A stretch of DNA of 64,000 nucleotides from NCBI GenBank assembly GCA_035533295.1, contig DATLUA010000040.1, forward strand, positions 559 to 64,558, written 5' to 3'. Position 1 is the stretch's first letter, and the number at the start of each line of letters is the position of its first letter. This document shows positions 809 through 58,893 of the stretch, piece by piece. The translations under genes and the position numbers were made by a program. Under the pieces are notes generated by a model. It was given only the letters and a program-made list of their open reading frames with translations, was not told the origin of the DNA and made no database searches. Source of the stretch: Elusimicrobiota bacterium (GTDB lineage Bacteria > Elusimicrobiota > Elusimicrobia > UBA1565 > UBA9628).

Positions 809-1489
809 CTAACCGCCGCCCCCGCCCGGTCCGCCGCCGGCCGCCGCGCCCTGCGCGCTGGAGGAGCCGGGCAGAACGAATTGGATGGGCCGGTCGCGGT
901 TGGGCACGTACTTGATGACCTTGAACGTGAGCCCTTGGGACTTGTACATCCAGCCGATCTGCAGGACCGGGCCGGTCTTGACCGTGAGCGTCACTTCCTG
1001 CCAGACCTCGGTGCGCAGGATGTCCAAATTGGCCGAGGCTAGGTTCAAGAAGCCCTTTAACTGCGAGTTGTTGAAGCCCAGGTAGTCCATCACGTCGTTG
1101 CGGATGTCGGTCTGCAGGACGTTGTCGTCGTTGACGTAGGCCACATTGCGGTGGGATTCGAGCTCCCAGCGCGTGGCCGCGTAGTAGGAAGCGATTTCCA
1201 TCTTCTGCACCAGAATCAAGAGCGCGAAAATCTTGGCGAAGGCGAAGAGGAAGAACATGAAAAAGGGCAGGAGAATGACGGTCTCCAAGGTCGCTTGGCC
1301 GCGGGAACGGCGGAGGCGGAAAGAAAAAGAAGGAACGGAAGGGAACGGAGGGAAACGGAAGGGAACGGAGGGAAACGGAAGGGAACGGAAGGGAACGAAG
1401 GAGCGGGATAAAAAAACCGGAAAAAAGCGGAGCGCACGAAATGGGCCGCAGCCATGAGAATTTATTGCTGTCTGCTTCTTCTTTTTCAT
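809..1489 (-). CDS. TadE-like / class III signal-peptide pseudopilin (paralog 1); true start probably internal (~1288-1320) because the 5' part of the ORF reads through a repeat element
   Basis: N-terminal RRSRGQ|ATLETVILLPFFMFFLF... is a G-x4-E prepilin-like hydrophobic segment. The upstream 60 codons translate the GGAACGG repeat (FPSVPFRFPPFP), which is unlikely to be real protein. Confidence 0.45.
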   Translation of the reverse strand: MKKKKQTAINSHGCGPFRALRFFPVFLSRSFVPFRSLPFPSVPFRFPPFPSVPSFSFRLRRSRGQATLETVILLPFFMFFLFAFAKIFALLILVQKMEIASYYAATRWELESHRNVAYVNDDNVLQTDIRNDVMDYLGFNNSQLKGFLNLASANLDILRTEVWQEVTLTVKTGPVLQIGWMYKSQGLTFKVIKYVPNRDRPIQFVLPGSSSAQGAAAGGGPGGGGG

Positions 1490-1530
1490 TCCGTTCTTCC
1501 GTTACTTTCTGTTCTTTCCGTTCCGCCTCA
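1300..1530. repeat. GGAACGG/CCGTTCC inverted-repeat element copy 1 (purine-rich decamer array, ~80-nt core, inverted pyrimidine-rich array)
   Basis: 1331-1409 is seven tandem 10-bp units GGAACGGAAG/GGAACGGAGG/GAAACGGAAG. 1478-1530 carries the inverse CCGTTCTTCCGTTACTTTCTGTTCTTTCCGTTCC. The element is intercistronic between two minus-strand genes. Confidence 0.7.
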
Positions 1531-2913
1531 CGGGTATTCCCTCACCTGGAAGTGCGGCGTGGGGCAGGGCCAAACGCTGGCCGAGCCCGAGGTCTCTCCC
1601 TGGCAGTCGGAACTGCCGCCGGTCATGCCCATCCACAGCGCGATGCGCGAATGCACCTCGGGAAGCCCCGGCCCCATGAGCGCCGGGAAGTTCACGTTGA
1701 AGTAGTTGGACGGCGGCGTCCACGGCACCGTCACCGGCCAGCCGCCGCCGCCGGTCTGGCCCTGCGGGTTGCGGTCGTCCATGGTCTCCAATTCCGACTT
1801 GTCCACGGTGACCAGCTGGAAAAGCCCGTCGCAGTTGGAGATGTTGCTGGTCATGGACTGCACGCCGCAGACGGGTTCGGGCAGGTTGCCGATGAGCTCG
1901 TGCATGAACTTGTTGCCGCAGAAGCCCACTTTCGGAGCGCATTGGAAGTGCACGGAGCTCAAAAAAGATCCCGCGTATTGGTTGAAGGACGTGCTCAGCA
2001 GCTGGGACTCGTTCAAGGCATTGGCGCCGCCGGCGTTAAGCCAGTAGGACTTGGCCAAAAAATCGTGGTTGCCGGCCAGGCGCTGCAAAACCGAATACTG
2101 GGCCGACTCCACCGAGCCCAGCAGCTGGTAGACCTGGGTGTAGAGCCCGTAAATGGTGGAGAAGTCATCGTACTGCACGTCCCAGTAGTCCGCGGCGCGC
2201 AGACGGAACAAAACCAGCGTGTCCGGGCTCCAGGGCGGCGGCGGGCTGCCGCCCGAGGCGTCGTCCGGCGTCGGGCCGGGAATATCCGGATCCGTCACGT
2301 TCTTGCGCGTTCCGATGCCGCCGTAGCCGATGTCCCACGTGCCTTCCTGGTGGCTGTAGTCGGAGGTCTCCTGCTGGGTCGGATAGTAGGTCGGATCGAG
2401 CGAGGAGCTTCCCCCGCTCTCGTGCAGGCTGCGCGGAAAGATGCCCTCCTGGTACAAGACGTCGTACCACGGCGAGGGCCCCGGGCAGGAGCCGCCGTTG
2501 CCGGGCACGCTGCGGCCTTCGCAGGTCACGTCCTGGCCCTGGAACACCTCCTGGAAGATGCGCATGGGAAACGCGCCGTCGACGTAAGCGGAGCGGTTCA
2601 GGAAGTCCGAATAGTTGGTCATCTCGATGAACGCGGCGGCGTCGATGGCGAACTGGTGCCGGATTTTTTCCTGCGAGAGCTTGGCCGTCTCGTAGATGAG
2701 CCAGACAAAGAGCATCAAGGACGGGAAGATGAAGAGCGCAGGGATCAAAATCTGGCCGCGGGAACGTCGGAAACGGAAAGAGAGGGAAAGAGGCGGAGGG
2801 GAACGGAAGGGAACGGAGGGCGCGGCGCCGATAAAAAAACGCCGCGCGCCTATCGCTTCCGGCGCGGCGCTTTGCCCGTTTTTTTCCGTTTGCTTCCGTT
2901 CCATCCGTTGCAT
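1528..2913 (-). CDS. TadE/TadG-like large pseudopilin (paralog 2); start likely ~2760, 5' end of ORF reads through repeat element
   Basis: RFRRSRGQ|ILIPALFIFPSLMLFVWLIY... is a TadE-like N terminus, followed by a ~400-aa extracellular domain of normal composition. The overlapping plus-strand ORF 1441..2937 is R/G/A-rich antisense. Confidence 0.45.
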   Translation of the reverse strand: MQRMERKQTEKNGQSAAPEAIGARRFFIGAAPSVPFRSPPPLSLSFRFRRSRGQILIPALFIFPSLMLFVWLIYETAKLSQEKIRHQFAIDAAAFIEMTNYSDFLNRSAYVDGAFPMRIFQEVFQGQDVTCEGRSVPGNGGSCPGPSPWYDVLYQEGIFPRSLHESGGSSSLDPTYYPTQQETSDYSHQEGTWDIGYGGIGTRKNVTDPDIPGPTPDDASGGSPPPPWSPDTLVLFRLRAADYWDVQYDDFSTIYGLYTQVYQLLGSVESAQYSVLQRLAGNHDFLAKSYWLNAGGANALNESQLLSTSFNQYAGSFLSSVHFQCAPKVGFCGNKFMHELIGNLPEPVCGVQSMTSNISNCDGLFQLVTVDKSELETMDDRNPQGQTGGGGWPVTVPWTPPSNYFNVNFPALMGPGLPEVHSRIALWMGMTGGSSDCQGETSGSASVWPCPTPHFQVREYP

Positions 2914-2930
2914 TGCGTTTCTTCCGTCTT
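2752..2930. repeat. GGAACGG/CCGTTCC inverted-repeat element copy 2
   Basis: Six 10-bp purine units lie at 2761-2820 (gggaacgtcg gaaacggaaa ... ggaacggagg). The GC-rich central palindromes are gcgcggcg...cgccgcgc. The inverse arm tttttttccgtttgcttccgttccatccgtt is at 2879-2910. Its left boundary (tggccgcgggaacg) matches copy 1. Confidence 0.7.
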
Positions 2931-2998
2931 ACTATAGCCCCCCGTCGGCGGCGATGCAAGGTAAAAAATGTTAAAAAACGGCGGAAAAGCCGCGCGCG

Positions 2999-4303
2999 TC
3001 AGTGGTGCAGGTTCCAGTTGACCAGGTAGGCGTATTCGGGAAGTCCGGGCGGTTGATAGGAACGCAAATTCGGATCGTAGGCCGCGCTGAACTTGGGGAA
3101 AGAATCGTTGACTGCCTGATCGCGGGTGCCGTAAAGGCTGAAGCGCTGGCTGCCGAAGCAGCCGCTGCAGTTGTATTTCTCCTGCGAGGCGTTGTAGGTG
3201 CAGCCGCAATTGGCGTTCATGTTGGCCGTCCCGTTCTGCACGAAATAGACCCCGACGACGGTCATCCCGGAATTGGGCGATCCGTAGAAATTGATGCAGT
3301 TGGTGGCCAGGGCGGCGAACGACTCTCCCGAGTTGGCCGAAATCGAGCTGGCTCCCACGTAATACACGCCGCCGTTGACGTTGACGATGCCCGCCGAAGA
3401 CGAGCAGCCGCCATTGGTCGAATCTCCGGCCACCACCGTCACCATGCCGCTGACCGCGCCCGAAACGGTCACATCGGCGTTGTTCGCGAAAATAATGGCG
3501 CCTGCGGCCGGGATGGGGTAGTTGGTCCCACCGATGGTGAAGGTCTTGTCGGAATTTAATTGGACGCTGATCGAGGAGGTCGTGATGTAGGTTGAATAAG
3601 CCTCGTAGTAGGTGAAATCGAGGGTGGGCCAAGTGATCGGCGGGATGAAGTTGTAGGTGTTGCCCTTGACCGTGAATGATCCTTTGCTGGCGCCGGCGTA
3701 GTAGAGGTCCCCATCGATGGTCGCGTTGCCGGAGAGGTTCCCGTTGACCACCACGGGCCCGCCCACGAAGACGGTGCCCGCGGTCTGCAGGGTGAATTTT
3801 CCGTTGACGTAAAAGCCGCCGCTGTAGGTGGTGCCGTTTCCGCCGCTGAGCGTCGTGGCGCTGTTGAACATGCTGCCGTAAAGGGCCAAGGGCGAGACGA
3901 ACTGGATAAGGGCCTCAAGCACGCGCTCATGCGTCCCAGCCGTCGTAGCCGCGCTGCCGGCGACGCCTTCCGCGCGCAGGTAGAGGGTATGGTGCACCGA
4001 ATCCGCGGCGAACGTCACGGTCGAGTAGCCAGCCGAATAGAAATCCTCCGGGCGCTCCAGATCCGCCTCGTCGTAATGGCCGTTGTAGGGATTCTGGGAG
4101 AACTGGCGAAAATAATCGGTGACCACGTCGTTGGCTAGTTCCGAGGCGTTTTTCTGCTCCCTATCGGCGATGGCGGCCTTGACGGTCTCGGCGACGTACC
4201 GGCAGAAATAGAACGCGACGGGAAGAGCCATCAGCATGACGATAAGCGCCATGATCAGCGCCTGCCCGCGTCGTCCGGCGCCCTCCGTTTTACGGGCTCT
4301 CAT
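2999..4303 (-). CDS. PilX-like minor pilin-associated protein with Gly/Asn-rich beta-helix-like domain
   Basis: The RRGQALIMALIVMLMALPVAFYF N terminus resembles the PilX N-terminal domain. The remainder has GNLSGNATIDGDLYYAG-type repeats and a Cys-rich C terminus. Confidence 0.5.
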   Translation of the reverse strand: MRARKTEGAGRRGQALIMALIVMLMALPVAFYFCRYVAETVKAAIADREQKNASELANDVVTDYFRQFSQNPYNGHYDEADLERPEDFYSAGYSTVTFAADSVHHTLYLRAEGVAGSAATTAGTHERVLEALIQFVSPLALYGSMFNSATTLSGGNGTTYSGGFYVNGKFTLQTAGTVFVGGPVVVNGNLSGNATIDGDLYYAGASKGSFTVKGNTYNFIPPITWPTLDFTYYEAYSTYITTSSISVQLNSDKTFTIGGTNYPIPAAGAIIFANNADVTVSGAVSGMVTVVAGDSTNGGCSSSAGIVNVNGGVYYVGASSISANSGESFAALATNCINFYGSPNSGMTVVGVYFVQNGTANMNANCGCTYNASQEKYNCSGCFGSQRFSLYGTRDQAVNDSFPKFSAAYDPNLRSYQPPGLPEYAYLVNWNLHH

Positions 4304-5090
4304 ATTTCAAGGGCAGCAACGGAGGATAGACGTCCGTTTCCGCGTCGTAGGTTTCTCCATGCAGGGTCACGTCCATGCCGATGCTGACGTAGGTGATGTA
4401 GCCCAATTCCTGCGGCGTATCCAGGCTCCCATCGCCGTTTCCCGCCTGGTCCATTTCCTGCTCGCTGATGACGCCGTCGCCGTTGAAGTCTATGTTTTTA
4501 TCGACAGGCAACGCCTTGTCGCCCCAATAAGTGAACGTGAACGTGGAGACGTTCGCGGCGAGCTGCTTCAAGTACCTGCCGCCCCAAGGCGCCTCGTCCA
4601 AGCTCATGTCGAACCAAACGCCGCCGTTGGAATAATAAATCCGCTCCTCCACGTCGATTTTGCCGTCCTTGTCCTCATCGTCGTTCTTGAGATTGTACCC
4701 GACCGTCCACTGCGCCGTGGCGCCGACCAGCAGATTGGCGGTGCAGGCCACGTCCGCGCTCAAGTAATTGGGAATTCCGGAGCAACCCACGGCGTTAGGA
4801 CTGTAATTCGGGCTTTGGTCGATATCCACGATGTATTGGGCGAAGGTGGAGGTCGCGACCACGAATTGGTTCGCGTGGAGCATATACTCCTCCATCTTCA
4901 TCATCGCCTGACGCGCCTGCTCCTGCGCCTCGCTCTCGTTGACCACGGCGTTGTTCGACTTCATGATTCCCGCCAAAAAGCCCGCGAACGCGGCGCAGGC
5001 CACGGCCATGATGGCCATGCCGACCATGAGCTCGGTCAAAGTGTAGCCGCGCGCGCGCCGTTTCATAGCTAGGGGACGGTGAAATTCCAA
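4290..5090 (-). CDS. Type IV pilin-like minor pilin with two EF-hand-like Ca-binding loops
   Basis: RRARG|YTLTELMVGMAIMAV is a class III signal with the +5 Glu. Loops DEDKDGKIDVEE and DFNGDGVISEQE match the 12-residue EF-hand consensus. The ORF overlaps its neighbours at both ends. Confidence 0.6.
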   Translation of the reverse strand: MEFHRPLAMKRRARGYTLTELMVGMAIMAVACAAFAGFLAGIMKSNNAVVNESEAQEQARQAMMKMEEYMLHANQFVVATSTFAQYIVDIDQSPNYSPNAVGCSGIPNYLSADVACTANLLVGATAQWTVGYNLKNDDEDKDGKIDVEERIYYSNGGVWFDMSLDEAPWGGRYLKQLAANVSTFTFTYWGDKALPVDKNIDFNGDGVISEQEMDQAGNGDGSLDTPQELGYITYVSIGMDVTLHGETYDAETDVYPPLLPLKYESP

Positions 5091-6778
5091 GTGTCGTTGT
5101 TGCTCACGTCCGCCGGGGGATTTTGCGCGCAGTGGCTGACGGTCAGGCTCACGGTGTGCATGCTTCCGGAGCCATACGCCGCGGGCGGGGCATAGGACAC
5201 CGTTCCCGCGGACGGATCGTAGGCCGAGCCGATGTTCCCTATTCCGGAGCTCACCACCACCACGCCGTCCACGCTCATTTGAATACTGGACGGAACGATG
5301 CCGCTCTGGTTGTCGAAAATCTTCGCGGAAATGGTCGGATCATCGGAACCCGCGCTGCCGCCGATGGGCGAGGGTTGGGCGATGGAGGGCGCCGAGTTGT
5401 CCGGATCATTAACGGAGGGCGTAAACGTCCACGTTGAGGTCGCCTTGTAGCCCGCGTAGTCCCCCGCCTCGAGATAAACGCTGTAGGTCCCGGAATTTAA
5501 ATCCGGCGCGCTTCCCGTCACGGTGTCGATCCAGACCACGTTGCCGCTGGCCGCGTCGTAGCTGAAATTGACCGTGGATCCGTTGACCTCCATGGTGATG
5601 ACCGAGGGGCAGATGCCGCTGGTCGTGGTCGTGGAAACTCCCGGATCCGAGAGCGTCGCGGCCACGTAGGGCGCGCAGGTGCCGGCCGCGCCCTGGGGCG
5701 TTTCGCCGCTGATGACCGGAGGCGAGACGTCCAAAAGAACGTTCTCTATCGCCAGCGGAGACGTCAGGGTCCCCTTCACGGTTTGGGCCGTGATTTGATT
5801 GCTTCCCTCGACGAGATTTGAGGTCAGGCTGACCGCCGGAAAGGAAAAATCGCCGAAAGAGTCCGCGGCGACGCTGTCGAGAATGCCCGAGCCGCCCACG
5901 TAGAAATTCACCGTTCCGATGGGCTCGGTCTGTCCGACCATCAGCAGAGGCACGTTCGAGTCGGCCTCCATCTGCACGATATTCGCGGGATACGGCTTCA
6001 CTAGGGAAATCGCCAGGGAGGCCTGCTGCTGCGGCGTCAAGGACTGGTAAAGGTACGCGTTGTTCGTGGGAGTGGAAACCAGGAGGCTCAAGATGGACTC
6101 GCTCGAAGGATCGCTGCCGGGCTGGAATTGCTCTAGGGAAATCAGGCTGGTCTGCGAGCAGACGATTTGCCCCTGATCGTAGACGTCCAGGGTCACCTGC
6201 TTGATGTGCGTGTCCGGCTGTTCGGCCACGATACGGCCGTTGGAAACGTAGGTGTCGTAATAGTCCCCGTCGCCGTTCTGATCGTAATACTTGATGTTGG
6301 GGTCGTATGCGTCCACGCCGTGCCCGTCATCCGTGAAAGGAATCAAATCCGAGGTCATGCCGTTATGATTGGCGTCCGTGGTGTCTCGGCGCATGAAAAT
6401 AATGGACACCTTGAACCGGTCGAACCCCGCGGCGGACAGGGACGACTGTATGCCGTTGAGGACGGCGGTGTACGGATAGGCGGTCCACGGGCTTCCCGCT
6501 TTAATGAGGCCGTAAGCCGAGGAACTCGAATCCACGGCGAAAAGGTAGTAAAAGTCCATGTTCTTGAGCTGGTTCATCGAGGATTGCGCGAGCATCCCGC
6601 AGGTCATTTGCCGCCGCGCGGCCAAGGAAGCCTTCCCAAGATTGCCGATAAGGGAAATCAACGCCACCCCCACCATCGTCATGATAAGGGTGGCCAGGAC
6701 GGTTTCTAGAAGTATAGACCCTCTTTTTCGCGTTTTTCGCGGCGGCGCCCGAGATTTCTTTTTTCTGGACACAACCAA
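5069..6778 (-). CDS. Large type IV pilin-like minor pilin (PilW-like?)
   Basis: KRG|SILLETVLATLIMTMVGVAL prepilin-like N terminus. The 569-aa protein has a beta-rich, Ser/Thr/Gly-rich extracellular region. Confidence 0.5.
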   Translation of the reverse strand: MVVSRKKKSRAPPRKTRKRGSILLETVLATLIMTMVGVALISLIGNLGKASLAARRQMTCGMLAQSSMNQLKNMDFYYLFAVDSSSSAYGLIKAGSPWTAYPYTAVLNGIQSSLSAAGFDRFKVSIIFMRRDTTDANHNGMTSDLIPFTDDGHGVDAYDPNIKYYDQNGDGDYYDTYVSNGRIVAEQPDTHIKQVTLDVYDQGQIVCSQTSLISLEQFQPGSDPSSESILSLLVSTPTNNAYLYQSLTPQQQASLAISLVKPYPANIVQMEADSNVPLLMVGQTEPIGTVNFYVGGSGILDSVAADSFGDFSFPAVSLTSNLVEGSNQITAQTVKGTLTSPLAIENVLLDVSPPVISGETPQGAAGTCAPYVAATLSDPGVSTTTTSGICPSVITMEVNGSTVNFSYDAASGNVVWIDTVTGSAPDLNSGTYSVYLEAGDYAGYKATSTWTFTPSVNDPDNSAPSIAQPSPIGGSAGSDDPTISAKIFDNQSGIVPSSIQMSVDGVVVVSSGIGNIGSAYDPSAGTVSYAPPAAYGSGSMHTVSLTVSHCAQNPPADVSNNDTWNFTVP

Positions 6779-6829: not shown

Positions 6830-8101
6830 TCACGGCAGGCCGGCGGGCCAATTCATGACCTCTTCCTGCCAAGACTGCCTGGCCAACTGGACACCGGTCA
6901 CCATCATATTCTGAGCCGACGCATCGTTGTAGTAAACGGTCACGCCCGAATTCCAAGTCATGGTCGTGGTTCCCACGACGTAGAAGGCTCCGTAAATATT
7001 GCCGTTGCCGCCGCCGCCGCCGCCGTTCAAGATGCCGCCTACGTAGACGAGGCCGTTGAAGGCGATTTTGCTTCCCGGATAGGTTAGGCCGGTCGGGGCG
7101 TAGTTTGAGTCCAGTCCCGGGAACGAGGCCGGGGAGCCCGCGTCGAACGATTGGTAATGACTCCAATCGTTGCAATACTGCTTCCAGCCCAGCGGCGGGA
7201 TATCCATGGTGGGCGAGCCCTTGCCGAAGGTTCCGTTGGGCAGGTTCAAATTGCCGGTGATGATGACGGAGCCCACGATATAGACTCCCGGCGAATTGAT
7301 GCTTAAGCTGTGTCCGTCATCAATGTAATAGGTATCGCCGCTGGTGTCGTTGATATTCTTCCAGGTTTGATCGCTGGTGAAATAGCAGCTGCCGCCGACC
7401 CCGCCCGAAATAGGGCAGGGGACTTCGGCCTCCGCCGAGGACTTGTAGGCCGTGAAGTCAAGGGATGGCGCCGGCGGAATCTCGCTGGAATAGGAATGCC
7501 ACTGGCAGCAGGACGGCGAATCGCAGTTGGGCGGCGCCGGATCCGAATCGAAGGGCGATATGCTCGACGCCGACCAAAACTGGGGGTAGCCGACCGCCGA
7601 GCCAAGCGTGATGGGCTGGGGACTCATGATGCCGCCCCATTCGACGTTGACGCCCCCGCTGATTTCAACGCTGCCGCCACCGTAAAGGGCCGTTCCGGAA
7701 AGGACCGCGTTGGCGTAGACCGCCTTGATGGTCCTCACTTCGCGCTTCAAGTCGTCGCGCCCGACGCTCAATACCGTGACCTCCTGGGTTTGCGGCCCGC
7801 TGGAGATGGAAATCGCGTACTCGCCGCCGCTCAAATCCGCGTAGGCGGCGTCGAATTGATAGCCGCTTAGGAGTTTGCCCTCCTGAAGATTTTCCCAGGT
7901 CTGCGTCGAGACGGTCATGGCCAGATATGCCTTCTCGATGCCCGCCTCGGCCAGATGAAACGCCGTAGTTTTTTCAGCCTGGGATTGGGTCCAGACGGCT
8001 TCCCGGCGGCTGTAAAACACCAGCAGCGGGACAAGAATCGCCGCGATGAGCAGGACCAAAACGGCGCCGACCAGCACCTGGCCCGGCTCGCGCCGCCGCA
8101 T
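6830..8101 (-). CDS. PilX-like protein (paralog of 2999..4303)
   Basis: GQVLVGAVLVLLIAAILVPLLVFYSRREAVWTQSQAEKTTAFHLAEAGIEKA matches the PilX N-terminal pattern. A Gly-rich GGGGGGNGNIYGAFYVVG region resembles the other PilX-like protein. Confidence 0.5.
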   Translation of the reverse strand: MRRREPGQVLVGAVLVLLIAAILVPLLVFYSRREAVWTQSQAEKTTAFHLAEAGIEKAYLAMTVSTQTWENLQEGKLLSGYQFDAAYADLSGGEYAISISSGPQTQEVTVLSVGRDDLKREVRTIKAVYANAVLSGTALYGGGSVEISGGVNVEWGGIMSPQPITLGSAVGYPQFWSASSISPFDSDPAPPNCDSPSCCQWHSYSSEIPPAPSLDFTAYKSSAEAEVPCPISGGVGGSCYFTSDQTWKNINDTSGDTYYIDDGHSLSINSPGVYIVGSVIITGNLNLPNGTFGKGSPTMDIPPLGWKQYCNDWSHYQSFDAGSPASFPGLDSNYAPTGLTYPGSKIAFNGLVYVGGILNGGGGGGNGNIYGAFYVVGTTTMTWNSGVTVYYNDASAQNMMVTGVQLARQSWQEEVMNWPAGLP

Positions 8102-8604
8102 CAGTTCATGACCCTCACTTTCTCAATGGTCAATTCCAGGACTTTTTTCTGGCCGCGCTGGATGGTTTCCCCCATGGTCAAGGAAACGCTCACGATGGTC
8201 GGATTATCCGACTGCGGGAAGGTAAACGCGATGTACGACAGATGCTTGCTCATGACCGTGGTCGTATTGCCTATGACCTGCATCAATTCGTCGCCGCTCT
8301 GATAAAAAGACATACTGCGGCCACCGACCGTGGTGAAATCGATGCGCGAGTACGGTCCGCCGTTGGACGGAGTGCTGATGGTAATGGACAAATCCTGGGC
8401 TTGGCGAATATAGCGATTCATGGTGTCCAAGCATTGCCTGGCGTCGCGCTCTATGTCGTTGTTGGCCTGCGTCAGCTGATAAAAGTCGTTGAGGTGCATA
8501 AGCAGGTACGCGCCGGTGCTGGCAACGATGGCGACGATGGCCACGACGAGCATCATCTCGGCGAGGGTATACCCCAGCATCTTTCCCGTCCGGGCGCGCG
8601 TCAT
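8101..8604 (-). CDS. Type IV pilin-like minor pilin (FimT/GspH-like size)
   Basis: KMLG|YTLAEMMLVVAIVAIVAS prepilin motif. 167 aa. The stop overlaps the next gene's start. Confidence 0.55.
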   Translation of the reverse strand: MTRARTGKMLGYTLAEMMLVVAIVAIVASTGAYLLMHLNDFYQLTQANNDIERDARQCLDTMNRYIRQAQDLSITISTPSNGGPYSRIDFTTVGGRSMSFYQSGDELMQVIGNTTTVMSKHLSYIAFTFPQSDNPTIVSVSLTMGETIQRGQKKVLELTIEKVRVMN

Positions 8605-11174
8605 GGCAGCGAAAGTTCCTCCGTCGTCGTCTGGCTGGGCGTGACGGAAATTCCTGAATAACTTTTCTGGCTTACGGAAACTCCGGGACCGCTTACCGTG
8701 GGGATGTAGACCGCGATGTTGTAGGTGTAGCCGCCGCGAACAGGCAGGCTATAGGTCCCGTCCGACAGGCTGGAGGCCGAATAAATGGGCGTCTGCGCCG
8801 GGGAAGACGAAGCGGAAATCGAGGGCAGCGTGGGAGGAATCGCCACAGTGCTGGCTAAGATAAGAGCTCCCGACGTGACGACCGAGCCGTTATACGTCAC
8901 GCTTCCGGCGATGGTTCCCATCGCGCCCGAAACCGTGAAGGTGCCGATGAACACAGTTTTTCCCTGCGCCGCGGCGGCCGTGATGCTGGTCGGGCTCGAG
9001 CTTTGTCCGGAATCCAGCGTCGGCTCGACCGTATAAGTCCCCGTCGGCAGCGTGATATAGAAGAGACCGGAGGCGCCGGTCGTGCCCGTGCCTCCCTGAT
9101 TTCCCCCGACGTTGGCCGTGACGACCAAGTCCAGAAGCGGCGTGGTTCCCGTCGTAGCGTAGCCCTCCAGGACGCCGCCGGCACTCAACGAAAAGTCCTG
9201 GATTACAAATTCCCCGGCATCGACATAAAGGACATTGACGCCTTGGATGTACCCAGGATTAAAGTTAGGCGAGCTGGCCGGGTTGGCGACCACCGTCACG
9301 GCGCCGGTCGACACGGAGAAAAAATAATCGCCGTTGGCGCCCGTGATCTGCGAAGCCCCGGGCGCTTCAACAGCGATGTCGGACAAAGGATTGCCAAGCG
9401 CGTCAGTGACCTGCCCGGCCACGAAGCCTTCGGCGGAGGTGGAACTCAATATCGCGCTTTCGACGCCGGCCGCGGGCCAAGCCGGGGAAGTCACCGCGCT
9501 TGGGGCTCCCGCGCTTACCCCTTGCGCGACCGCGACCAGGGATATCTGCTGCGTGAAAATCCCGCTAGCGACGACCACCGTCCACGTCCCGGTGCTCACC
9601 CCGGAAAGAGCAAACGGAGCGTAGAGAAGATTGCCGCCGCCCAAATAAGCGGCCGAAGCCTGCACCGAGCTCGAGTTGGGGTCGCTCGCCGCCACGTAGG
9701 CGCCGACCGCGGGAACGCCGGTGATGATCGTAGCCGTGGAGGCCGAGGTTTCCGGCAAAACGGGGATGCCCGAAAAGCTCAACGAGGGATAGAGGAAATC
9801 GTTGGGATTGTCGTTGGAGTCGTAGGCGCGGCCATATTCCTGGACGTCGGCAAGAGAAACGACCGCCTCCGGACTGGACAGGCGCACGATCTCGTCCCCG
9901 ACGGGAAAGCCGCCGCCTTGCTGGATACAGTCGGTTTCGCAGTAGCCGCTGGAGTGGGGGTTATGGCTGCCGTCGGTCCATCCCACCTCGTCCACCGGGT
10001 TCCCGGCCGAATCGGCCAGGATGACGGCGCCGCTGTGCCCGCTCTGCATGACGTTCATCGAAGACGGCGGGGTCCAGCCGGACGGAGTCGCCCCGCAGGC
10101 CGAGAGGATGTTTTGGCTCGGATCGTAGTAGGCATCCGCCACGTAGTTGACGCCTCCCACGGTAAACGTCGTGGTGTTGGCGATGACGTAGTAGCCGTAA
10201 GCCGGGATGGCCGCGGTGGATTCCACTAGGCCGATATCGGCGCAGTCGATGCTGTCGTAGAGGCTGAAAAACCCGAGCTTGAAAGCGGCCATGGGCTGCG
10301 GATATTGCGTCGGATTAAAAAGCTCGACATACTGCAGATCAAAGCCGTCGGCCTGGGGGCTGGAAACGACGACTTGGCTGATGACCACATTCGAACTGAT
10401 CCAGGCGTTGCCGGCCACCGTTCCTGATGAAATAGGAGAGAGCGAAATCGTCGGGACCGTCGTGCCGTAGTTTTCCGGCGGCGCGTAAACGGCGGGCGCC
10501 GTGGCTATCGTATACCCCACGGAAGACGCCTCCACCGTGTAGGAGCCGTGGTAAAGGCTGAACGAATAATGCCCCGTGGAATCTGTTTGTCCCGTCAAAG
10601 CCGGGTTCTCTTCGAGCCGCACGATGGCGTCGGCGAGGCCCGCGCTCGTGACAGAGTCATCGACGTATCCGGAAAGGCTCGAATCCAGGGGGTTCACGTT
10701 GGGATTCTCGTCCAAGTTGCTCAGCGAGAAATGGCGGATGACGCTGCCGGCGTCCTGCCAGACGACGTCGATTACGATTTCCTTCATTCCCGTGTCCGGA
10801 TAGGTGTTGGGAAGCGCCGACACATTGTTGTTGGTGACCTGCGCCATGGTGACGTAAGTGTAGCGCGTGAAGTTCATGCCTCCGATGGAAATCTGCTCCG
10901 GAGGATAGTTCGATGTGTCGTAAGTCATGCCGGCCGGATCCGTCGAAGCCGAGGTTGTAATGAGAAGCTCGTAATAGCTCAAGTTCTTGAGAGATTCGAT
11001 CTTTTCCTGCGCCAAGTTCGTCGCCAGAGTCTGTCCTCTGGAAATATGAAGGGAGCGGCTGATTGCGGAAAAGGCCCCGATGAATCCCAAGGACCCAATG
11101 CCAAGAATCGCCACGGCCACCATGAGCTCGGTCAATGTCACGCCGCGCTCGTTGACGGACCGGTTTAGGAACAT
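8601..11174 (-). CDS. Large PilV-like minor pilin / tip adhesin with carboxypeptidase-regulatory-like beta-sandwich repeats
   Basis: ERG|VTLTELMVAVAILGIGSLG prepilin N terminus. GHYSFSLYHGSYTVEA and GDYFFSVSTGAVTVVA segments are typical of CarbopepD_reg-like domains. 857 aa. Confidence 0.55.
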   Translation of the reverse strand: MFLNRSVNERGVTLTELMVAVAILGIGSLGFIGAFSAISRSLHISRGQTLATNLAQEKIESLKNLSYYELLITTSASTDPAGMTYDTSNYPPEQISIGGMNFTRYTYVTMAQVTNNNVSALPNTYPDTGMKEIVIDVVWQDAGSVIRHFSLSNLDENPNVNPLDSSLSGYVDDSVTSAGLADAIVRLEENPALTGQTDSTGHYSFSLYHGSYTVEASSVGYTIATAPAVYAPPENYGTTVPTISLSPISSGTVAGNAWISSNVVISQVVVSSPQADGFDLQYVELFNPTQYPQPMAAFKLGFFSLYDSIDCADIGLVESTAAIPAYGYYVIANTTTFTVGGVNYVADAYYDPSQNILSACGATPSGWTPPSSMNVMQSGHSGAVILADSAGNPVDEVGWTDGSHNPHSSGYCETDCIQQGGGFPVGDEIVRLSSPEAVVSLADVQEYGRAYDSNDNPNDFLYPSLSFSGIPVLPETSASTATIITGVPAVGAYVAASDPNSSSVQASAAYLGGGNLLYAPFALSGVSTGTWTVVVASGIFTQQISLVAVAQGVSAGAPSAVTSPAWPAAGVESAILSSTSAEGFVAGQVTDALGNPLSDIAVEAPGASQITGANGDYFFSVSTGAVTVVANPASSPNFNPGYIQGVNVLYVDAGEFVIQDFSLSAGGVLEGYATTGTTPLLDLVVTANVGGNQGGTGTTGASGLFYITLPTGTYTVEPTLDSGQSSSPTSITAAAAQGKTVFIGTFTVSGAMGTIAGSVTYNGSVVTSGALILASTVAIPPTLPSISASSSPAQTPIYSASSLSDGTYSLPVRGGYTYNIAVYIPTVSGPGVSVSQKSYSGISVTPSQTTTEELSLP

Positions 11175-15334: not shown

Positions 15335-15731
15335 CTAAGCGCGGGACCTTGAAAGCAGCTGCCGGATGCGGATGGAGAGCTCGGCCAAATCGAAGGGTTT
15401 GGTGAGGTACTCGTCGGCCCCCAAATCAAAGCCCTGGCGCTTCTCCTCGGAGGAGAGAAAGCGCCCGGTCATCATGATGAGGACCGTGCCCTTGGGCGCG
15501 CTCTTGCGCAGTTCCTGGCAAATCTGGAACCCGGAGGAATCGGGCAGCTGGATGTCCATGATGACCACCTGCGGGTTGAGTTTCTTGGCGGCGTCCAAGC
15601 CGGACTCGGCCGTGCCGGCTTGGTGGCAATCGAAGCCCTCCAATTCCAGCACCTCGGCGAGGCTTTCCCGCAGGTGCGCGTCGTCGTCGATAATCAAAAG
15701 CTTGGCTGATTCTGCGGCCATGTCACCTCCT
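15335..15731 (-). CDS. Single-domain response regulator (CheY-like receiver)
   Basis: I place the start at ATG 15731 (MAAESAKLLIIDDD) behind a GGAGGTGA Shine-Dalgarno sequence. D in VIMDIQLPD, T in MMTG and K in TKPF are all present. The ORF track's longer form, 15335..15835, adds an implausible N-terminal extension. Confidence 0.75.
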
Positions 15732-16532
15732 GGAGTCCCCGCCCGGCGGGACGAGCTTGTAGCCCACGCACGGGATGGTCGTGATGAACTTCGCGGCACC
15801 GCCCAGCTTCTCCCGCAAGCGCCGGACGTGGACATCCACGGTGCGCGGCGAGCCGAAGTAGTTGTAGCCCCACACGCGCTCGATGAGATAGGGGCGGCTT
15901 AAAACGCGGTTGGCCGAGCTTAGGAAAACGTAAAGAAGGTCGAGTTCCTTCGAAGTCAGGGGGACTTTTTTTCCGGAAACGTGCAACGTATAGCTGGTGA
16001 GATTGAGCTCGATGGGGCCCATCTTGATGAGCTCCTCCGAGGTGGTGTCCTGGGTCCGGCGCAAGACGGATTTGATGCGGGCCACGCATTCGGCGATGTC
16101 CCAGCCCAAGGACAGGCACTCGTCGGCGCCGGCCTGGAAGAAAGCCAGCTTCACGGACGTCTTGTCGGCCGCCGCCGCGGAGCCGGAATTGGCGAAAACG
16201 GGGCGCTTCAAGGGAGCCGGATGGCTGTGCCCAAGAGAAACCTTCACCGGCGCGGGAGCCGCTGCCGGGGCCTCCGCGTGCTCCACGAGGGCCACGATGG
16301 GAATCTGCCGGTTGGGGCCGCGCGCGCGCAGGTTCTTCACGAAGGCCAGGCCGTCCTCGTCCGCCAGCCGCTGGCCGATGAGCAGGAGGTCGCAGCTCGC
16401 GTGCGAGAGTATTCCCTGAACTTCCTTGGCCCGCTGCAAAGTGGTGACCGCCATCCCGTTGGCTGAGAGCGCTTCCAGCAACGCCACCCCGCGGCCGGGT
16501 TCCCGCGAAGCGTAAACGACGTTGACTCTCAT
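15723..16532 (-). CDS. OmpR-family winged-helix regulator with degenerate (non-phosphorylatable) receiver
   Basis: The C-terminal Trans_reg_C region reads LTSKELDLLYVFL...RVWGYNYFGSPRTVDVHVRRLREKL. The receiver lacks the acidic pair and the phospho-acceptor Asp (DLLLIGQRL) and carries a ~40-aa Ala/Pro-rich insertion. Confidence 0.65.
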   Translation of the reverse strand: MRVNVVYASREPGRGVALLEALSANGMAVTTLQRAKEVQGILSHASCDLLLIGQRLADEDGLAFVKNLRARGPNRQIPIVALVEHAEAPAAAPAPVKVSLGHSHPAPLKRPVFANSGSAAAADKTSVKLAFFQAGADECLSLGWDIAECVARIKSVLRRTQDTTSEELIKMGPIELNLTSYTLHVSGKKVPLTSKELDLLYVFLSSANRVLSRPYLIERVWGYNYFGSPRTVDVHVRRLREKLGGAAKFITTIPCVGYKLVPPGGDSRR

Positions 16533-16535
16533 GAA

Positions 16536-16982: not shown

Positions 16983-17114
16983 GCTCCTTGGCCGCTGCAG
17001 TTTCCCGCGGCTACCGTGGAAAGATTAACAGAACTAAGAGCAAAACGCAAGCAGGGCCCAGGCAGCGGCCCTTCGGGTTCGGCACGGATGCGGCTGGGGA
17101 AATTCTGATGGCAT

Positions 17115-18239: not shown

Positions 18240-18254
18240 GGCGTCAGCCCGCGG

Positions 18255-19703
18255 TCAAGGCCCGCCGCCGTACATCTGCTGGATGCGCTCCAGGCCCACC
18301 TCGGCGTCCGAATTGTTCGGATCAAGCTCCTTGGCGACGGAGAATTCTTGGCGCGCCTTGTCGTAATTGCCCTCGTTGTAATAAATCATGCCGGAAATGT
18401 AATGCTGCTCCGCGGCGTGCTTGGACTCCGCGGAGACCCCTCCGGGCGCCTGCGGCGCGGCCGCGGCGGCGGGCGAAGCGGAGGCGGCCTGCTGCTGGGC
18501 TTGCTGCTGGGCCTGCTGCTGCTTCTGCTTTTCGGCCGCCGCTTCCTCGGCTTTTTTCTGCGCCGCCTCCTTGGCGCGTTCGACCCTCGCCGCGGCGGCC
18601 TTTTTGGCCTCGACCTTGGCGAGCGCCGCCTGACGGATTCCCTCGCGCGCCCGCTCGATAAGCTGGGAGGCTATCGCCGGATCATAGCCGTAGCTCTCCG
18701 CCTTTTTCCACTCCGCGATGGCATCGTCGTAGCGGCCCGCATCGTAAAGCTGGCGTCCCAAAGACGCGTGCTGCTGGGCCATCTCGGAACGCAGCTCCAT
18801 CATGAGCTTTCGCGCCTTCTCGTCTCCGGGCCCGTACTGCAGCACCTCATCGATCTTTTGCAAAGCTTGCTCCGTCTCGCCCTGGCCGTAGAGTTGAAGG
18901 GCTTCCTCGAGCTTCCCGTTGGCTTCCTGCTCGCGCAGCTGGGACTCGGCCTGGGCGATATCGGCCACCAGTCCGGGGTAGTCGGATTTCAAGACCAAGG
19001 CGGCGTACCATTGGTTCAAGGCGGCCTGCAGCTGCCGCTGCCGGTAGGCTTGCTCCCCGCGAAGGAAATGCTGCCGCGCCAAATCCCCGCGCACGCGGTC
19101 AAGCCAGTAGCGGGCCTTGAAATTCCAAGGGGAAAGCTTGGTCGCCTCGGTCCACGTTTCCTCCGCCTCCGTCAGCCTTCCCTGGCGGTAGAGGGTCATG
19201 CCCTCCTGGAACTTGTCCTGCACGAGCTGCTGCTGGGAAAAAAGCGGGTGGGCGCTTCCCTTGAGCTCGGTCGCCGCTTTCTGCAGCATGAACGCGTCGC
19301 TGTAGTAAGGATCGATGGAAAGAATCTCGCCGGTCAGCGACTGCGCTCCGCCGTAATCCCCCTTCCTGTACAGCCCGTAGGCGTTTTGGTAGACAATCTG
19401 GAGGGCGCTTTGGGTGATGCGGTCTTCTTCCAGCTTGATGGTCTGCAAATAGGCCTTCTTCTCATCATCGGAGCTGATCGTCCCCAGCTGGGTCTTGGAC
19501 AAATCCAGGAACAGGCTGCCCAAGTTATGGGAACTCTCGCCCGCGCCCTGGGCCCGCAGAGGAAAAGAAACGGAATGAACGAAGAGGACAGAAAGCAACG
19601 GAATGAACAAAAAGCGGCGGAATGAACGAAGAGGAACGCAATGATGGGAAAGAAAGACGGCTCTGCCCTCTTCTTCCGTTTCCACCCGTTTTTTCCGTTC
19701 CAT
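18255..19703 (-). CDS. TPR-repeat protein with Gln/Ala low-complexity tract, TadD-like position; 5' end reads through repeat element
   Basis: Multiple TPR-like 34-mers (YYNEGNYDKARQEF, LGRQLYDAGRYDDAIAEW etc.). The tract AAEKQKQQQAQQQAQQQAASAS is low-complexity. It sits immediately downstream of tadC, where Tad loci encode the TPR lipoprotein TadD. Confidence 0.5.
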   Translation of the reverse strand: MERKKRVETEEEGRAVFLSHHCVPLRSFRRFLFIPLLSVLFVHSVSFPLRAQGAGESSHNLGSLFLDLSKTQLGTISSDDEKKAYLQTIKLEEDRITQSALQIVYQNAYGLYRKGDYGGAQSLTGEILSIDPYYSDAFMLQKAATELKGSAHPLFSQQQLVQDKFQEGMTLYRQGRLTEAEETWTEATKLSPWNFKARYWLDRVRGDLARQHFLRGEQAYRQRQLQAALNQWYAALVLKSDYPGLVADIAQAESQLREQEANGKLEEALQLYGQGETEQALQKIDEVLQYGPGDEKARKLMMELRSEMAQQHASLGRQLYDAGRYDDAIAEWKKAESYGYDPAIASQLIERAREGIRQAALAKVEAKKAAAARVERAKEAAQKKAEEAAAEKQKQQQAQQQAQQQAASASPAAAAAPQAPGGVSAESKHAAEQHYISGMIYYNEGNYDKARQEFSVAKELDPNNSDAEVGLERIQQMYGGGP

Positions 19704-19718
19704 TCGCTTTTTCCCGTT
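19560..19718. repeat. GGAACGG/CCGTTCC inverted-repeat element copy 3 (GGAATGAACGAAGAGGA variant)
   Basis: Purine arm with AACGGAATGAAC x3 at 19571-19640. Pyrimidine arm CTCTTCTTCCGTTTCCACCCGTTTTTTCCGTTCCATTCGCTTTTTCCCGTTC at 19669-19720. The TTCCGTTCCAT(C/T)CG core is shared with copies 2 and 4. Confidence 0.65.
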
Positions 19719-20617
19719 CAGAAGCCCAGGCCTCCGCTGATGAGGGACTTAATCATGGGCGAGAGCATCATAATGAAGACCGTCGGAAAAATAAAGATGA
19801 TGAGCGGAATGAGCATCTTCGTCGAGGCCTGCGCGGCCAGCTTCTCGGCGCGGGAGAGGCGCCTAAAGCGCATGTCAGAGGCATAGTTGCGCAGCAAATC
19901 AACCAGGCTCGTTCCCAGCTCGTCCGACTGGATGATGAGGCTCACGAAGGACCGGATTTCCTGGACTCCCGTCCGGCGCGCGAAGCGCGTCAGGGCGTCG
20001 CGCCGCGAGTAGCCCAGCGATACCTCGTCGAGCATGGTGCCTATCTCCATCTCGAGCGGCCCCCTCTTGGCCGAACTCTTGATGATGCGGTCGAACGCCG
20101 TCAGGTAATCAAGGCCCGCCTCGAGCGTCAGGGCGGCCAGGTCCACCAGCGGCGGAAAATCGCCCAAAATTTGGGTTTGCCGCTCCCGGACTTTCCGGTT
20201 GATGAACACGTCCGGAAAAATAAAGCCCAGGGCCACGAGCGCCGCGGAAATCACGACCGAACTGGTCCCAAACCACGCCGCGGCCCCGAACGCGAGCGCG
20301 CAAAGCTCCTTCAAATGGAGAATGTTGAGCGCGGAAGGCTTTTGCGGCCGGCCCAAGAGCAGGTGCATCTCCTCCAGCTTGGTCTCCAAGCTGGGAATTT
20401 TGAGGAGAAGGAAATCCAGCCGATCGACGATGGAGCCCTTGGGGTTGATGCGGCCGAAAACGGTCGAAACGTTGATGTCCTTTTTGGTCAACTGGGTCAA
20501 ATCCGTCGCGGCGGCGTCCGGCTCGGGGCTCAGCCAATTGCGCAGGGCCATGAAAAATCCCCAGGCGCTGACGGCCGCCAAAAGTGTCAAGAAATAGTGG
20601 AACCAGGAGCCGCTCAT
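19718..20617 (-). CDS. tadC: Tad pilus platform protein TadC (GspF/T2SSF family)
   Basis: Start at ATG 20617 (MSGSWFHYF). It overlaps the tadB stop in an ATGA arrangement. T2SSF-like LVDLAALTLEAGLDYLTAF...LGTSLVDLLRNYASDMRFRRLSRAEKLAAQASTKML. The long ORF-track version (to 21073) overlaps tadB in another frame. Confidence 0.7.
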   Translation of the reverse strand: MSGSWFHYFLTLLAAVSAWGFFMALRNWLSPEPDAAATDLTQLTKKDINVSTVFGRINPKGSIVDRLDFLLLKIPSLETKLEEMHLLLGRPQKPSALNILHLKELCALAFGAAAWFGTSSVVISAALVALGFIFPDVFINRKVRERQTQILGDFPPLVDLAALTLEAGLDYLTAFDRIIKSSAKRGPLEMEIGTMLDEVSLGYSRRDALTRFARRTGVQEIRSFVSLIIQSDELGTSLVDLLRNYASDMRFRRLSRAEKLAAQASTKMLIPLIIFIFPTVFIMMLSPMIKSLISGGLGF

Positions 20618-33855: not shown

Positions 33856-34552
<697 letters not shown>

Positions 34553-34563
<11 letters not shown>

Positions 34564-38876: not shown

Positions 38877-38900
38877 CCGTTTTTTCCGTTCCCTTCCGTC
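38792..38900 (-). terminator. GGAACGG/CCGTTCC inverted-repeat element copy 4 acting as intrinsic terminator/attenuator after tsaD
   Basis: Minus-strand RNA directly after the tsaD stop forms a long hairpin. The 5' arm is GGAAGGGAACGGAAAAAACGGAUGGAACGGAAAGAAUGGAAGG. The 3' arm is CCGUUCCUUCCGUUUCC followed by UUGUUUUUUGGGG. Confidence 0.55.
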
Positions 38901-58149: not shown

Positions 58150-58893
58150 ATAAAAGAAATTAGCGATCGCGCCCAAAGCGAGAAAGGGGGCGAAGGGAAT
58201 CGGTTCGTCCCGTTTAAGCTTTCTCCGGGCCATCAGCGTCCCGCCGTAGAGAACGCCGGCAAAGGACGCGATCAGGACGCAGTCAAACACGCCCAGGACG
58301 CCGCTCCACGCGCCGATGGCCGCCAAAAGCTTGATGTCGCCCCCGCCCATGGCTTCTTTTTTGAACAGGCGCTCGCCTAAGGCCGCGATGCCCCAGCATA
58401 GGGCGAAGCCGAAGGCCGCCCCGCCGGCGCTTGCGGCGGCCCGCCAGGGCCAGGACTCTTGGGCCAGGAGCGGATTAACGCCGGAAATCCCAATTCCAAG
58501 GGCGCACAAGCCCAGAGAAAGCTCATCGGGGATGAGGAAAGTGTCTCCATCAATAAAAGCAACGGCCGTGAGCCCGGCCGCAGCCAGGCTGGCCGAGAAA
58601 ACCCAGGGGCCGTTTCCCCAGCGCAGCCACAACGACAGGCACAACCCCGCCATCAAAAGCTCGACCGCCGGATAGCGCGCTGAAATTTTTCCGCGGCACG
58701 AGCGGCAGCGGCCGCGCAGAAAAATCCAGCTCAAAATCGGGACATTATCGTAAAAAGAGATGAGGACGCCGCATCCCGGACAATGCGAGCGCGGCCGGAC
58801 CACGGACTCGTCTTTGGGGAGCCGGCAGATGACGACGTTGAGGAAGCTTCCCAGGCAGGCGCCCAGCCAAAAAACCGCCGCGTCAATAAGCAT
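58117..58893 (-). CDS. pilD: Prepilin peptidase / N-methyltransferase PilD (A24 family)
   Basis: Zn-binding CPGCG...CRSCRGKI and the second catalytic Asp context AMGGGDIKLLAAIGAW. Eight TM helices. The ATG overlaps the last 11 nt of pilA1. Confidence 0.85.
   Translation of the reverse strand: MLIDAAVFWLGACLGSFLNVVICRLPKDESVVRPRSHCPGCGVLISFYDNVPILSWIFLRGRCRSCRGKISARYPAVELLMAGLCLSLWLRWGNGPWVFSASLAAAGLTAVAFIDGDTFLIPDELSLGLCALGIGISGVNPLLAQESWPWRAAASAGGAAFGFALCWGIAALGERLFKKEAMGGGDIKLLAAIGAWSGVLGVFDCVLIASFAGVLYGGTLMARRKLKRDEPIPFAPFLALGAIANFFYLLPWGFPFLR

Follow-up and report, generated by a model that had tools for sequence, protein, structure and literature searches.

Do the palindromic repeats that occur at four loci of this 64,000-nt stretch of an Elusimicrobiota genome (contig DATLUA010000040.1; the whole stretch analysed is called the window below) lie between genes, or do they form the beginnings of the genes that follow them? 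The first-pass annotation had described them as intercistronic inverted-repeat elements built of decamer arrays, and had regarded the peptides predicted across them as artefacts which mis-set the starts of four genes. We propose instead, with a probability of roughly 0.6, that they represent a lineage-specific palindromic repeat which is co-translated as the leader or signal peptide of exported or membrane proteins. The minus strand carries all the genes of the four loci, and the elements are the following.

1297..1530, minus strand: element copy 1, between the gene 2 stop (GTGA 1528-1531) and the RGQATLETV codons of gene 1; in mRNA order, purine arm 1529-1471 with ATG 1489, core 1470-1409, pyrimidine decamer array 1408-1297
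2752..2932, minus strand: element copy 2, starting just 3' of the conserved gene 2 promoter; in mRNA order, purine arm 2932-2876 with ATGs 2913 and 2904, core 2875-2832, pyrimidine arm 2831-2768
19559..19720, minus strand: element copy 3, directly 3' of the tadC (T2SSF) stop TGA 19718-19720; ATG 19703
38792..38902, minus strand: element copy 4, directly 3' of the tsaD stop (38899-38901); ATG 38876

The four loci exist as they had been described, all between co-directional genes, and shuffling, Tandem Repeats Finder and nhmmer place them beyond chance. They are the only related elements in the window, measure 110-235 bp and all consist of a purine-rich arm, a core and a pyrimidine-rich arm, with ACGGA/TCCGT units spaced about 10 bp, or one helical turn, apart. 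The array of copy 1 at 1332-1401 has the consensus GGAACGGAAG, a period of 10, 7.1 copies and 85% matches (Tandem Repeats Finder, score 105), and every other arm carries shorter arrays of 9-10 or 19 bp according to the same program. When at most one mismatch is allowed, GGAACGGAAG is found 23 times in the window, mostly within the four loci, versus 7.4 +/- 3.1 times after shuffling, and none of 100 shuffles reached 23. The arms form inverted repeats of 16-33 nt with 73-94% complementarity. With each copy as nhmmer query, the other three were recovered (E about 1e-10 to 1e-3) and no fifth copy was found in the window; because same-orientation matches outscore opposite-orientation ones in most comparisons, the copies seem to be oriented alike with respect to transcription. 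The multi-copy family of inverted repeats with decamer units and hairpin potential is real. It matches no Rfam family (the window and 11 loci, related or foreign, were searched at gathering thresholds) and its decamer strings gave no match in the literature searched, so that this palindromic repeat family of four elements is, as had been suspected, apparently undescribed.

Read on the mRNA strand, each element passes from the purine arm, which contains an ATG, through the core to the pyrimidine array and continues in frame into the downstream gene. The 5' edge falls at, or 1 nt past, the native stop codon of the upstream gene in copies 1, 3 and 4, and past the gene's own promoter in copy 2, while the 3' edge is the exact start of the conserved N-terminal feature of the downstream protein. 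There is no T in the purine arm and no A in the pyrimidine arm (T-free runs of 112 and 64 nt), so that no stop codon is possible in either arm in any frame; a reading frame can therefore accommodate the element, which also tolerates decamer slippage. Two details of the first description concern the strand. The arms with a Shine-Dalgarno-like GGAGG do exist, but on the antisense strand, the long decamer array of the mRNA being the pyrimidine (CUUCCGUUCC) arm; likewise, the shared TTCCGTTCCATYCGTT core is real but is the reverse complement of AACGRATGGAACGGAA, that is, of a start codon followed by Glu-Arg-Lys codons.

The genes that follow the elements, with the part predicted to be encoded by each element, are listed here.

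809..1489, minus strand: gene 1, TadE-like pseudopilin; 62-residue leader from copy 1
1528..2913, minus strand: gene 2, TadE/TadG-family pilus assembly protein; N-terminal extension of about 40 residues from copy 2
18255..19703, minus strand: gene 3, tad-locus TPR protein; n- and h-regions of the signal peptide from copy 3
37158..38876, minus strand: gene 4, TMEM260-like / PMT_2 membrane glycosyltransferase-like protein; N-terminal tail from copy 4

In these four genes, every in-frame ATG, GTG or TTG upstream of the conserved motif lies inside the element, so that translation of genes 1-3 would include at least the pyrimidine arm, whichever start is used. Moreover, the ATG is in the actual frame in 4/4 copies, for expected frame fractions of 2/3, 1/3, 1/3 and 2/3 (product about 0.05). 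Since conserved features stand directly 3' of the pyrimidine arm and the upstream starts are all inside the element, the idea of artefact peptides is not supported; judged from sequence comparison, the peptides are almost certainly real N-termini.

The conserved feature of gene 1 is the prepilin RG/Q site (a slash marks the cleavage position): the predicted N-terminus is MKKKKQ...FPSVPFRFPPFPSVPSFSFRLRRSRG/QATLETV, its ...RRSRG/QATLETVILLPFF agrees with homologues, and ATG 1489 is the only in-frame start found upstream of RGQ in a scan for ATG, GTG and TTG. The same scan finds only ATG 2913 and ATG 2904 in gene 2, whose predicted N-terminus (MQRMERKQTEKNG...SFRFRRSRG/QILIPAL) passes from the pyrimidine arm of copy 2 into ...FRFRRSRG/QILIPAL, and the NCBI record of a 100%-identical protein, labelled as Elusimicrobiota, starts with MERKQTEKNG (2904). 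Gene 2 has about 229 homologues; N-termini were read in 10 of them, all with a basic leader of 5-25 residues followed by RGQI(L/V)IPA, for example MSSKRGVRLGRRGQILIPAL in P0002 (84% identity) and MRLSRGQILIPALL in P0020. Both genes show a basic leader, a G at position -1 and then a hydrophobic helix, which is the layout of class III (prepilin) leaders, and a prepilin-peptidase-like ORF was read by eye at 58117..58893.

The N-terminus of gene 3 has, by alignment with homologues, the layout of a Sec signal peptide. Predicted as MERKKRVETEEEG...RRFLFIPLLSVLFVHSVSFPLRA/QGAG, it comprises basic RSFRR, hydrophobic FLFIPLLSVLFVHSVSF and the putative signal-peptidase site PLRA/QG aligned with PARA/QD of the homologue P0121, and the predicted mature protein starts with QGAGESSHNLGSLF. 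Homologues have ordinary Sec signal peptides, as in P0121 (89% identity; MTNSRRNRLRMLAAAAILAAAGFPARA/QDAGKGSHNLGSLF), whose cleavage region MTNSRRNRLRMLAAAAILAAAGFPARA/QDAG faces ...RRFLFIPLLSVLFVHSVSFPLRA/QGAG of the window. The four in-frame starts of gene 3 (ATG 19703, GTG 19685, TTG 19610 and TTG 19598) are all inside copy 3. In gene 4, copy 4 encodes the first ~22 residues, MERKEWKETGVFRRFSASSVPS, of a predicted N-terminus MERKEWKETGVFRRFSASSVPSVSLFFGAF...; alignments with homologues begin at query residue ~20-26 and at residue 3-15 of the homologue, and the Pfam TMEM260-like domain starts at residue 45, which indicates that the first transmembrane segment (TM1) is conserved and that the first ~20 residues are extra. 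Upstream of TM1, ATG 38876 is the only in-frame start.

These anatomical data bear directly on the view that the elements are non-coding, intercistronic attenuators or mRNA stabilisers like the repetitive extragenic palindromes (REP), with true starts downstream and ORF extensions that are artefacts. Their hairpin potential, the terminator-like hairpin with seven T in copy 2, stop-free arms through which ORFs would extend automatically, and the position of similar AACGGAW palindromes of other phyla, mostly intergenic and often just past gene ends, all fit this view. However, genes 1 and 2 have no start codon between the array and RGQ, downstream starts would deprive gene 3 of its signal peptide and gene 4 of a part of TM1, and relatives have no spacer at sites 1 and 3. 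Indeed, the elements overlap coding sequence, their arms are decamer arrays, and they have no GTAG-type head as known from REP and bacterial interspersed mosaic elements (BIME). We therefore consider this explanation very unlikely as a whole, although a secondary REP-like or attenuator-like role of the RNA is possible.

The comparison with relatives supplies empty versions of three of the sites: sites 1 and 2 in locus L004, site 2 in L003 and site 3 in L244-L247. In L004 (relative with 71% identity), genes 2 and 1 overlap at GTGA and gene 1 has the leader MKIIGGRCKRGQATLETV, without copy 1; the window has the same GTGA, then ~225 nt of element before CGC GGC CAA GCG ACC. L003 (84% identity) has its own site-1 copy, in frame and with a GTG start: MARRRFPFAPFRSLPFLSVPLRFRRSRGQ. 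At site 2, the position of the following promoter is kept.

2931..2959, minus strand: promoter-like TTGCAT-17 nt-TATAGT of gene 2, found by eye (a stricter consensus scan gave no call)

It reads TTGCAT/TATATT in L003 and TTGAAT/TATATA in L004, where, without copy 2, the same promoter is followed by an untranslated region of 20-25 nt and short leaders. At site 3, the contigs L244-L247 (83-89% identity), one of which comes from the same sample as the window strain, lack copy 3: the stop of tadC and the start of the TPR gene overlap in TGATG without any spacer, and the signal peptides are normal. In the window, the tadC TGA is followed by ~165 nt of element and homology resumes only at ...RAQGAG, which means that the stretch coding for the signal peptide of gene 3 was replaced. 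The term intercistronic is consequently not supported, as relatives have no intercistronic DNA at sites 1 and 3 and the element has taken the place of the 5' coding end of the downstream gene. The nhmmer search proposed in the first-pass annotation, run on the window and on L004, L244 and L247, found the four window copies and none in these three loci. Presence and absence among relatives indicate that the family is recent and lineage-specific.

The composition of the arms would suit a role in export. Codons rich in purines yield K, E, R, G, N and T, and those rich in pyrimidines yield F, L, S, P, V and R; a palindrome with purines first and pyrimidines second keeps this order on both strands and would give a charged and then a hydrophobic stretch, the layout of an export signal. 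According to the co-translation model, the repeat would have become established at the 5' ends of genes whose products are exported or membrane proteins, and would now be co-transcribed and co-translated with these genes. Translation would start at the ATG of the mRNA purine arm, yielding a charged n-region of the MERK/MKKKK type, and would run on through the core and the pyrimidine arm, whose pyrimidine-rich codons would supply F, L, S, V, P and R. In gene 3 the residues of the pyrimidine arm would form the hydrophobic core of the Sec signal peptide, in genes 1 and 2 a long prepilin leader would be cut by the prepilin peptidase at RG/Q, and in gene 4 the element would encode a cytoplasmic tail before TM1.

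At the RNA level, folding of the minus-strand transcripts, which had been suggested as a check, gives long imperfect hairpins with z = -2.9, -2.4, -1.3 and -3.3 for copies 1 to 4 versus dinucleotide shuffles. The hairpins had been expected to end in U-rich runs; hairpins there are, but their T/U runs belong to the core between the two arms, 5' of the pyrimidine arm, and are not at the hairpin's 3' end (the core of copy 1, 1470-1409, holds T-runs together with the second ATG, 1455). As for termination, copy 2 alone contains a convincing terminator-like hairpin, and this one is inside the element.

2837..2870, minus strand: terminator-like GC hairpin plus seven T in the core of copy 2 (called site 2851..2837 plus TTTTTTT)

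The downstream CGGCGCCGCGCC of copy 2 can pair alternatively with the 3' half of this hairpin, and the minimum free energy fold has the alternative hairpin with the U-run in its loop; the cores of the other three copies have short stems and interrupted T-runs. One may speculate that leader translation could override this internal arrangement of terminator and anti-terminator type in copy 2. The start sites (-15 to +6) of copies 1, 3 and 4 have unpaired probabilities of 0.21, 0.12 and 0.20, compared with a mean of 0.43 (range 0.21-0.61) for 23 other genes; the hairpin would bury these three start sites. In the same three copies the base of the hairpin stem abuts the upstream stop codon, so that a terminating ribosome would open the stem; this would preserve the coupling that relatives obtain from overlapping stop and start codons. 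A secondary role of the element hairpins in translational coupling is therefore probable.

Several points weigh against the co-translation model and its account of the origin of the elements. That the elements are translated rests on comparative anatomy, the Shine-Dalgarno-like sequences before the element ATGs are weak, and the P- and R-rich leaders of genes 1 and 2 (52-62 residues) exceed the usual prepilin length. The insertions could be recent and the four genes crippled, despite intact ORFs. On the RNA side, the hairpin z-scores are modest and the start of copy 2 is not sequestered (unpaired probability 0.51). Regarding mobility, the filled sites are replacements and not clean insertions (23 to ~225 nt at site 1, ~75 to ~165 nt at site 3), no target-site duplication or flanking direct repeat was found at the filled sites compared, the cores of the four copies are unrelated to each other, and no transposase or full-length parent element was found within the ~79 kb of this genome reached, from which the size and site preference of the family are extrapolated on the basis of 4-6 copies. 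Given replacement, unrelated cores and no target duplication, transposition is no more than one possible way of spread, another being recombination between leader regions. Small size with inverted repeats, multiple dispersed copies and filled versus empty orthologous sites are nevertheless found here as in MITEs, the transposable elements of the miniature inverted-repeat kind, while the target-site duplication and clean boundaries of MITEs are not.

The number of decamers in array 1 differs between assemblies. Two other assemblies of the same organism (L001 at 11560 and L002 at 11551) have 5 units versus 7 in the window, and the 20-bp gap of two decamers (window 1334-1353) is the only indel in 12.9 kb at 99.8% identity. 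In the 5-unit allele the frame is shifted and ATG 1455 comes into frame, so that gene callers give a 208-residue protein, MAAAHF...RRSRGQ. When modelled, alleles of 7 and 5 units are both ON through two different ATGs and an allele of 6 units has no start. This could suggest a contingency (phase-variation) switch, in which gain or loss of 10 bp would toggle the pseudopilin between in-frame ON and start-less OFF: the unit is not a multiple of 3, the tract is in the 5' coding region, copy number varies between assemblies and 6 units are modelled OFF. But only two alleles were seen, both ON, the natural slippage unit is 20 bp, and copies 2 and 4 show no change in any other available assembly, and we hold such a switch to be highly improbable. 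For copy 3, the length comparison ends early, as L248-L250, the three short Logan contigs containing the neighbouring gene, all stop short of the element; they end at window 16492 and start inside gene 3 (compared span 16492-19526), and L248 halts ~30 nt short of the element, which would fit an assembly break at a repeat.

Two related sequences lie outside the window. The site-1 element of L003 (2078-2660; GCA_028870215.1, JAGWQA010000436.1) encloses, on the opposite strand, a gene for a 120-residue 23S-rRNA-intervening-sequence protein (PF05635), flanked by a complete purine-core-pyrimidine hairpin on one side and by a second pyrimidine array on the other, and the C-terminal tail of this protein, RKRKERGRNGMERTGTE, is arm-encoded. 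This form may be a cargo-carrying element; a general link between the elements and this gene was discarded, because tblastn against all fetched loci gave no other instance. L145 (Ga0307374_10013902, 8805-8880, minus strand), a metagenome contig of the same sample series, carries a pyrimidine array that shares 22 identical nt (TTCCGTTCCTTCTTTTTCTTTCCG) with copy 1 and encodes the lipoprotein-type signal peptide MKGPFRFLPFLLFLSVLSSC of an ankyrin-repeat protein; it has no purine arm, and a terminator-like hairpin lies ~20 nt upstream of the ATG.

Could the arrays have arisen in place, without any mobile element? Low-complexity pyrimidine tracts would then have grown by replication slippage in weakly constrained codons of leaders or signal peptides, complementary purine tracts would have evolved or been copied upstream of them, and the similarity between copies would reflect convergence and gene conversion among leader regions. 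Slippage is indeed seen directly in array 1 (7 versus 5 units), in L145 a signal peptide is encoded by a pyrimidine array that lacks a purine arm, and the missing target-site duplication, the lack of a clean insertion and the unrelated cores are equally in line with this explanation. Copies 1 and 2 also share CGTTCCCGCGGCCA, spanning the RSRGQ codons, which hints at recombination between leader regions, as expected between paralogous leaders. On the other hand, strings of 16-22 nt are common to copies at unrelated genes, such as AACGGATGGAACGGAA in copies 2 and 4, all the copies have one three-part architecture in one orientation, relatives with 83-89% protein identity either have or lack the entire element, and analogous multi-copy palindromes with conserved arms exist in other genomes. 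An origin by slippage in situ thus appears unlikely, and the dispersed repeat remains our preferred reading.

The spacing of about one decamer had also been compared with tandem sites of OmpR-family regulators, one of which is encoded nearby (15723..16532). The 10-bp phasing stands, falling in the 10-11-bp direct-repeat range of such sites, but the position does not: OmpR sites lie upstream of or overlap the -35 element, whereas copy 2 is downstream of the -10 and copies 1, 3 and 4 are at former stop/start overlaps inside operons. More generally, the arrays might be phased sites for a DNA-binding protein (OmpR-type, LytTR/AlgR-like or other) that regulates transcription of the pilus genes. In addition to the 9-10-bp spacing, this would explain why palindromes of other phyla keep the AACGGAW core invariant while their spacers vary and are non-complementary between arms, a pattern of a recognised motif more than of mere pairing, and CCGTTC is similar to CCGTTCGTC, the AlgR site through which minor-pilin genes of Pseudomonas are controlled (PMC4064291). 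Besides their position, the arrays are in coding sequence, the OmpR-type gene is also kept in relatives without elements, copy 4 is at tsaD and a glycosyltransferase-like gene unrelated to pili, and no LytTR gene was noted in the window. Regulation of this kind is, in our opinion, quite unlikely to be what the arrays are for.

The palindromes of other phyla come from two scans. Genomes of 185,579 species were scanned with TCCGTTN{3,4}TCCGTTN{3,4}TCCGTT, i.e. three TCCGTT units at 9-10-bp spacing (at least 120 stretches), and metagenomes with GRAACGGARGGRAACGGARG (at least 119 stretches). Among the matches listed, no locus is recognisably from the window organism except probably L145, and no Elusimicrobiota loci are otherwise included. 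The matches listed from both scans include 37 array pairs with an inverse array within 350 bp, 33 of which are in the purine-then-pyrimidine order; the 37 pairs belong to Bacteroidota, Chloroflexota, Gemmatimonadota, Acidobacteriota, Alpha- and Gammaproteobacteria, Cyanobacteria and metagenome-assembled genomes of a Heliobacteriaceae and a Kuenenia. Arms of 3-4 AACGGAW units at 9-10-bp spacing are found in L005, L052, L061, L067, L070, L072, L075, L083, L091, L102, L104, L123, L124 and others, the arms being conserved within a genome and the cores different; they too matched no Rfam family and nothing in the literature searched. Among the matches listed these palindromes are mostly intergenic or just past gene ends and are not N-terminal fusions, which implies that the translated state is not a general property of the wider class. 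Two candidates were rejected: the ORF enclosed by arms 1.3 kb apart at L007, considered as an autonomous element, is ordinary and L,D-transpeptidase-like, not a transposase, and the Pro/Ser-rich linker at L002 18441-18489, considered as an arm, is an internal SAPSVP linker with no inverted partner. As a tentative extension that we regard as rather doubtful, the elements could be a portable "leader cassette" that encodes the charged and then the hydrophobic stretch on either strand and in any frame and can land at a gene start, with its own start codon, a signal peptide or prepilin leader and hairpin coupling, representing the Elusimicrobiota branch of a wider, undescribed class of AACGGAW-array palindromes in at least 8 phyla, with arms recognised by a protein.

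The neighbourhood of genes 1-3 is tad/type IV-pilus-like, with N_methyl-type pseudopilins, T2SSE/T2SSF, a secretin, the TPR protein and the OmpR-type regulator nearby. The pseudopilin-like genes at 2999..4303, 4290..5090, 5069..6778, 6830..8101 and 8601..11174 (minus strand) have ordinary short leaders such as MRARKTEGAGRRG/QALIMAL and MKRRARG/YTLTELMV, and only two genes of the cluster carry an element. A type IV pilin-like gene at 33856..34563 (minus strand), MKMRRLRGFTLTELLVVLVIIG..., has a (GGC/GGT) tract at 33957-34106 that codes for 43 prolines in unbroken succession (Tandem Repeats Finder: period 9/18, up to 13.7 copies). A protein search with the 65-residue element-encoded leader retrieved no other element-bearing genes, probably on account of low complexity. 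Next to gene 4, the comparison of the window with L251 (99.3% identity over 7 kb) places all 48 mismatches in one patch of ~500 bp, 35907-36408, inside the gene at 35787..37154, which suggests a segment recombined between strains.

If the element-encoded N-termini are functional, the four genes would offer a natural case of selfish or repeat DNA replacing the export signals of conserved genes, here those of a tad TPR protein, two pseudopilins and a membrane glycosyltransferase-like protein, and signal peptides and prepilin leaders would be entry points of repeat DNA into coding sequence. For annotation, the export signal would be lost if such ORFs were cut back to a start further downstream. 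The purine/pyrimidine asymmetry of the arms provides a simple rule for the in-frame tolerance of some palindromes, and the AACGGAW-decamer palindromes found across phyla suggest an unrecognised repeat class with a putative binding factor that is worth a systematic survey.

Among known systems, simple-sequence contingency loci likewise have a tandem tract in the 5' coding region, a non-triplet unit and a copy number that varies between populations, but their units are usually 1-7 bp and they act as ON/OFF switches, whereas array 1 has start codons in two frames and no stops, and looks buffered rather than switch-like. REP/BIME sequences are extragenic-type palindromes between co-directional genes, some of them attenuators or mRNA stabilisers; in contrast to the present elements, REPs are 20-40 bp long, have a GTAG-type head, are linked to RAYT transposases, are untranslated and show no decamer periodicity. 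The Correia/NEMIS elements of Neisseria (100-160 bp) resemble ours in their inverted ends, co-transcription, RNA-level hairpins and strain-variable presence; their 26-bp terminal inverted repeats, TA duplication, IHF sites and promoters were not found here. The enterobacterial MITEs YPAL/RU-2 and ERIC have translated ORFs (Delihas 2007/2008), and the YPAL fusion YPO1552 is predicted to be part of a signal peptide (PMC2229807). They share with our elements the in-frame fusion of MITE-derived sequence and RNA hairpins that affect the expression of operon neighbours (PMC2229807), but the fusions are mostly hypothetical new ORFs, whereas here the native export signals of conserved genes are replaced, the elements have no TA target duplication and the arms are periodic arrays. 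Rickettsia palindromic elements (RPEs; Ogata et al. 2000, reviewed in PMC2229807) are small palindromes in frame within conserved ORFs. As in RPEs, a small palindrome with a long stem-loop is in frame without stops and an added peptide segment is tolerated because it leaves function intact (PMC2229807); judging from the predicted ORFs, the repeat here also lies in genes that are conserved elsewhere without it. However, RPEs are internal and surface-exposed, whereas the present elements are at the extreme 5' end, supply the start codon and replace the leader or signal peptide; furthermore, their arms consist of decamer arrays asymmetric in purines and pyrimidines, their sequences are unrelated to RPEs and the host phylum is another. 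The closest known kinds are thus the RPEs and the translated YPAL/ERIC MITEs, and what is new here is the combination of decamer-array arms, purine/pyrimidine asymmetry, an extreme 5' position with a start codon, and the replacement of native export signals.

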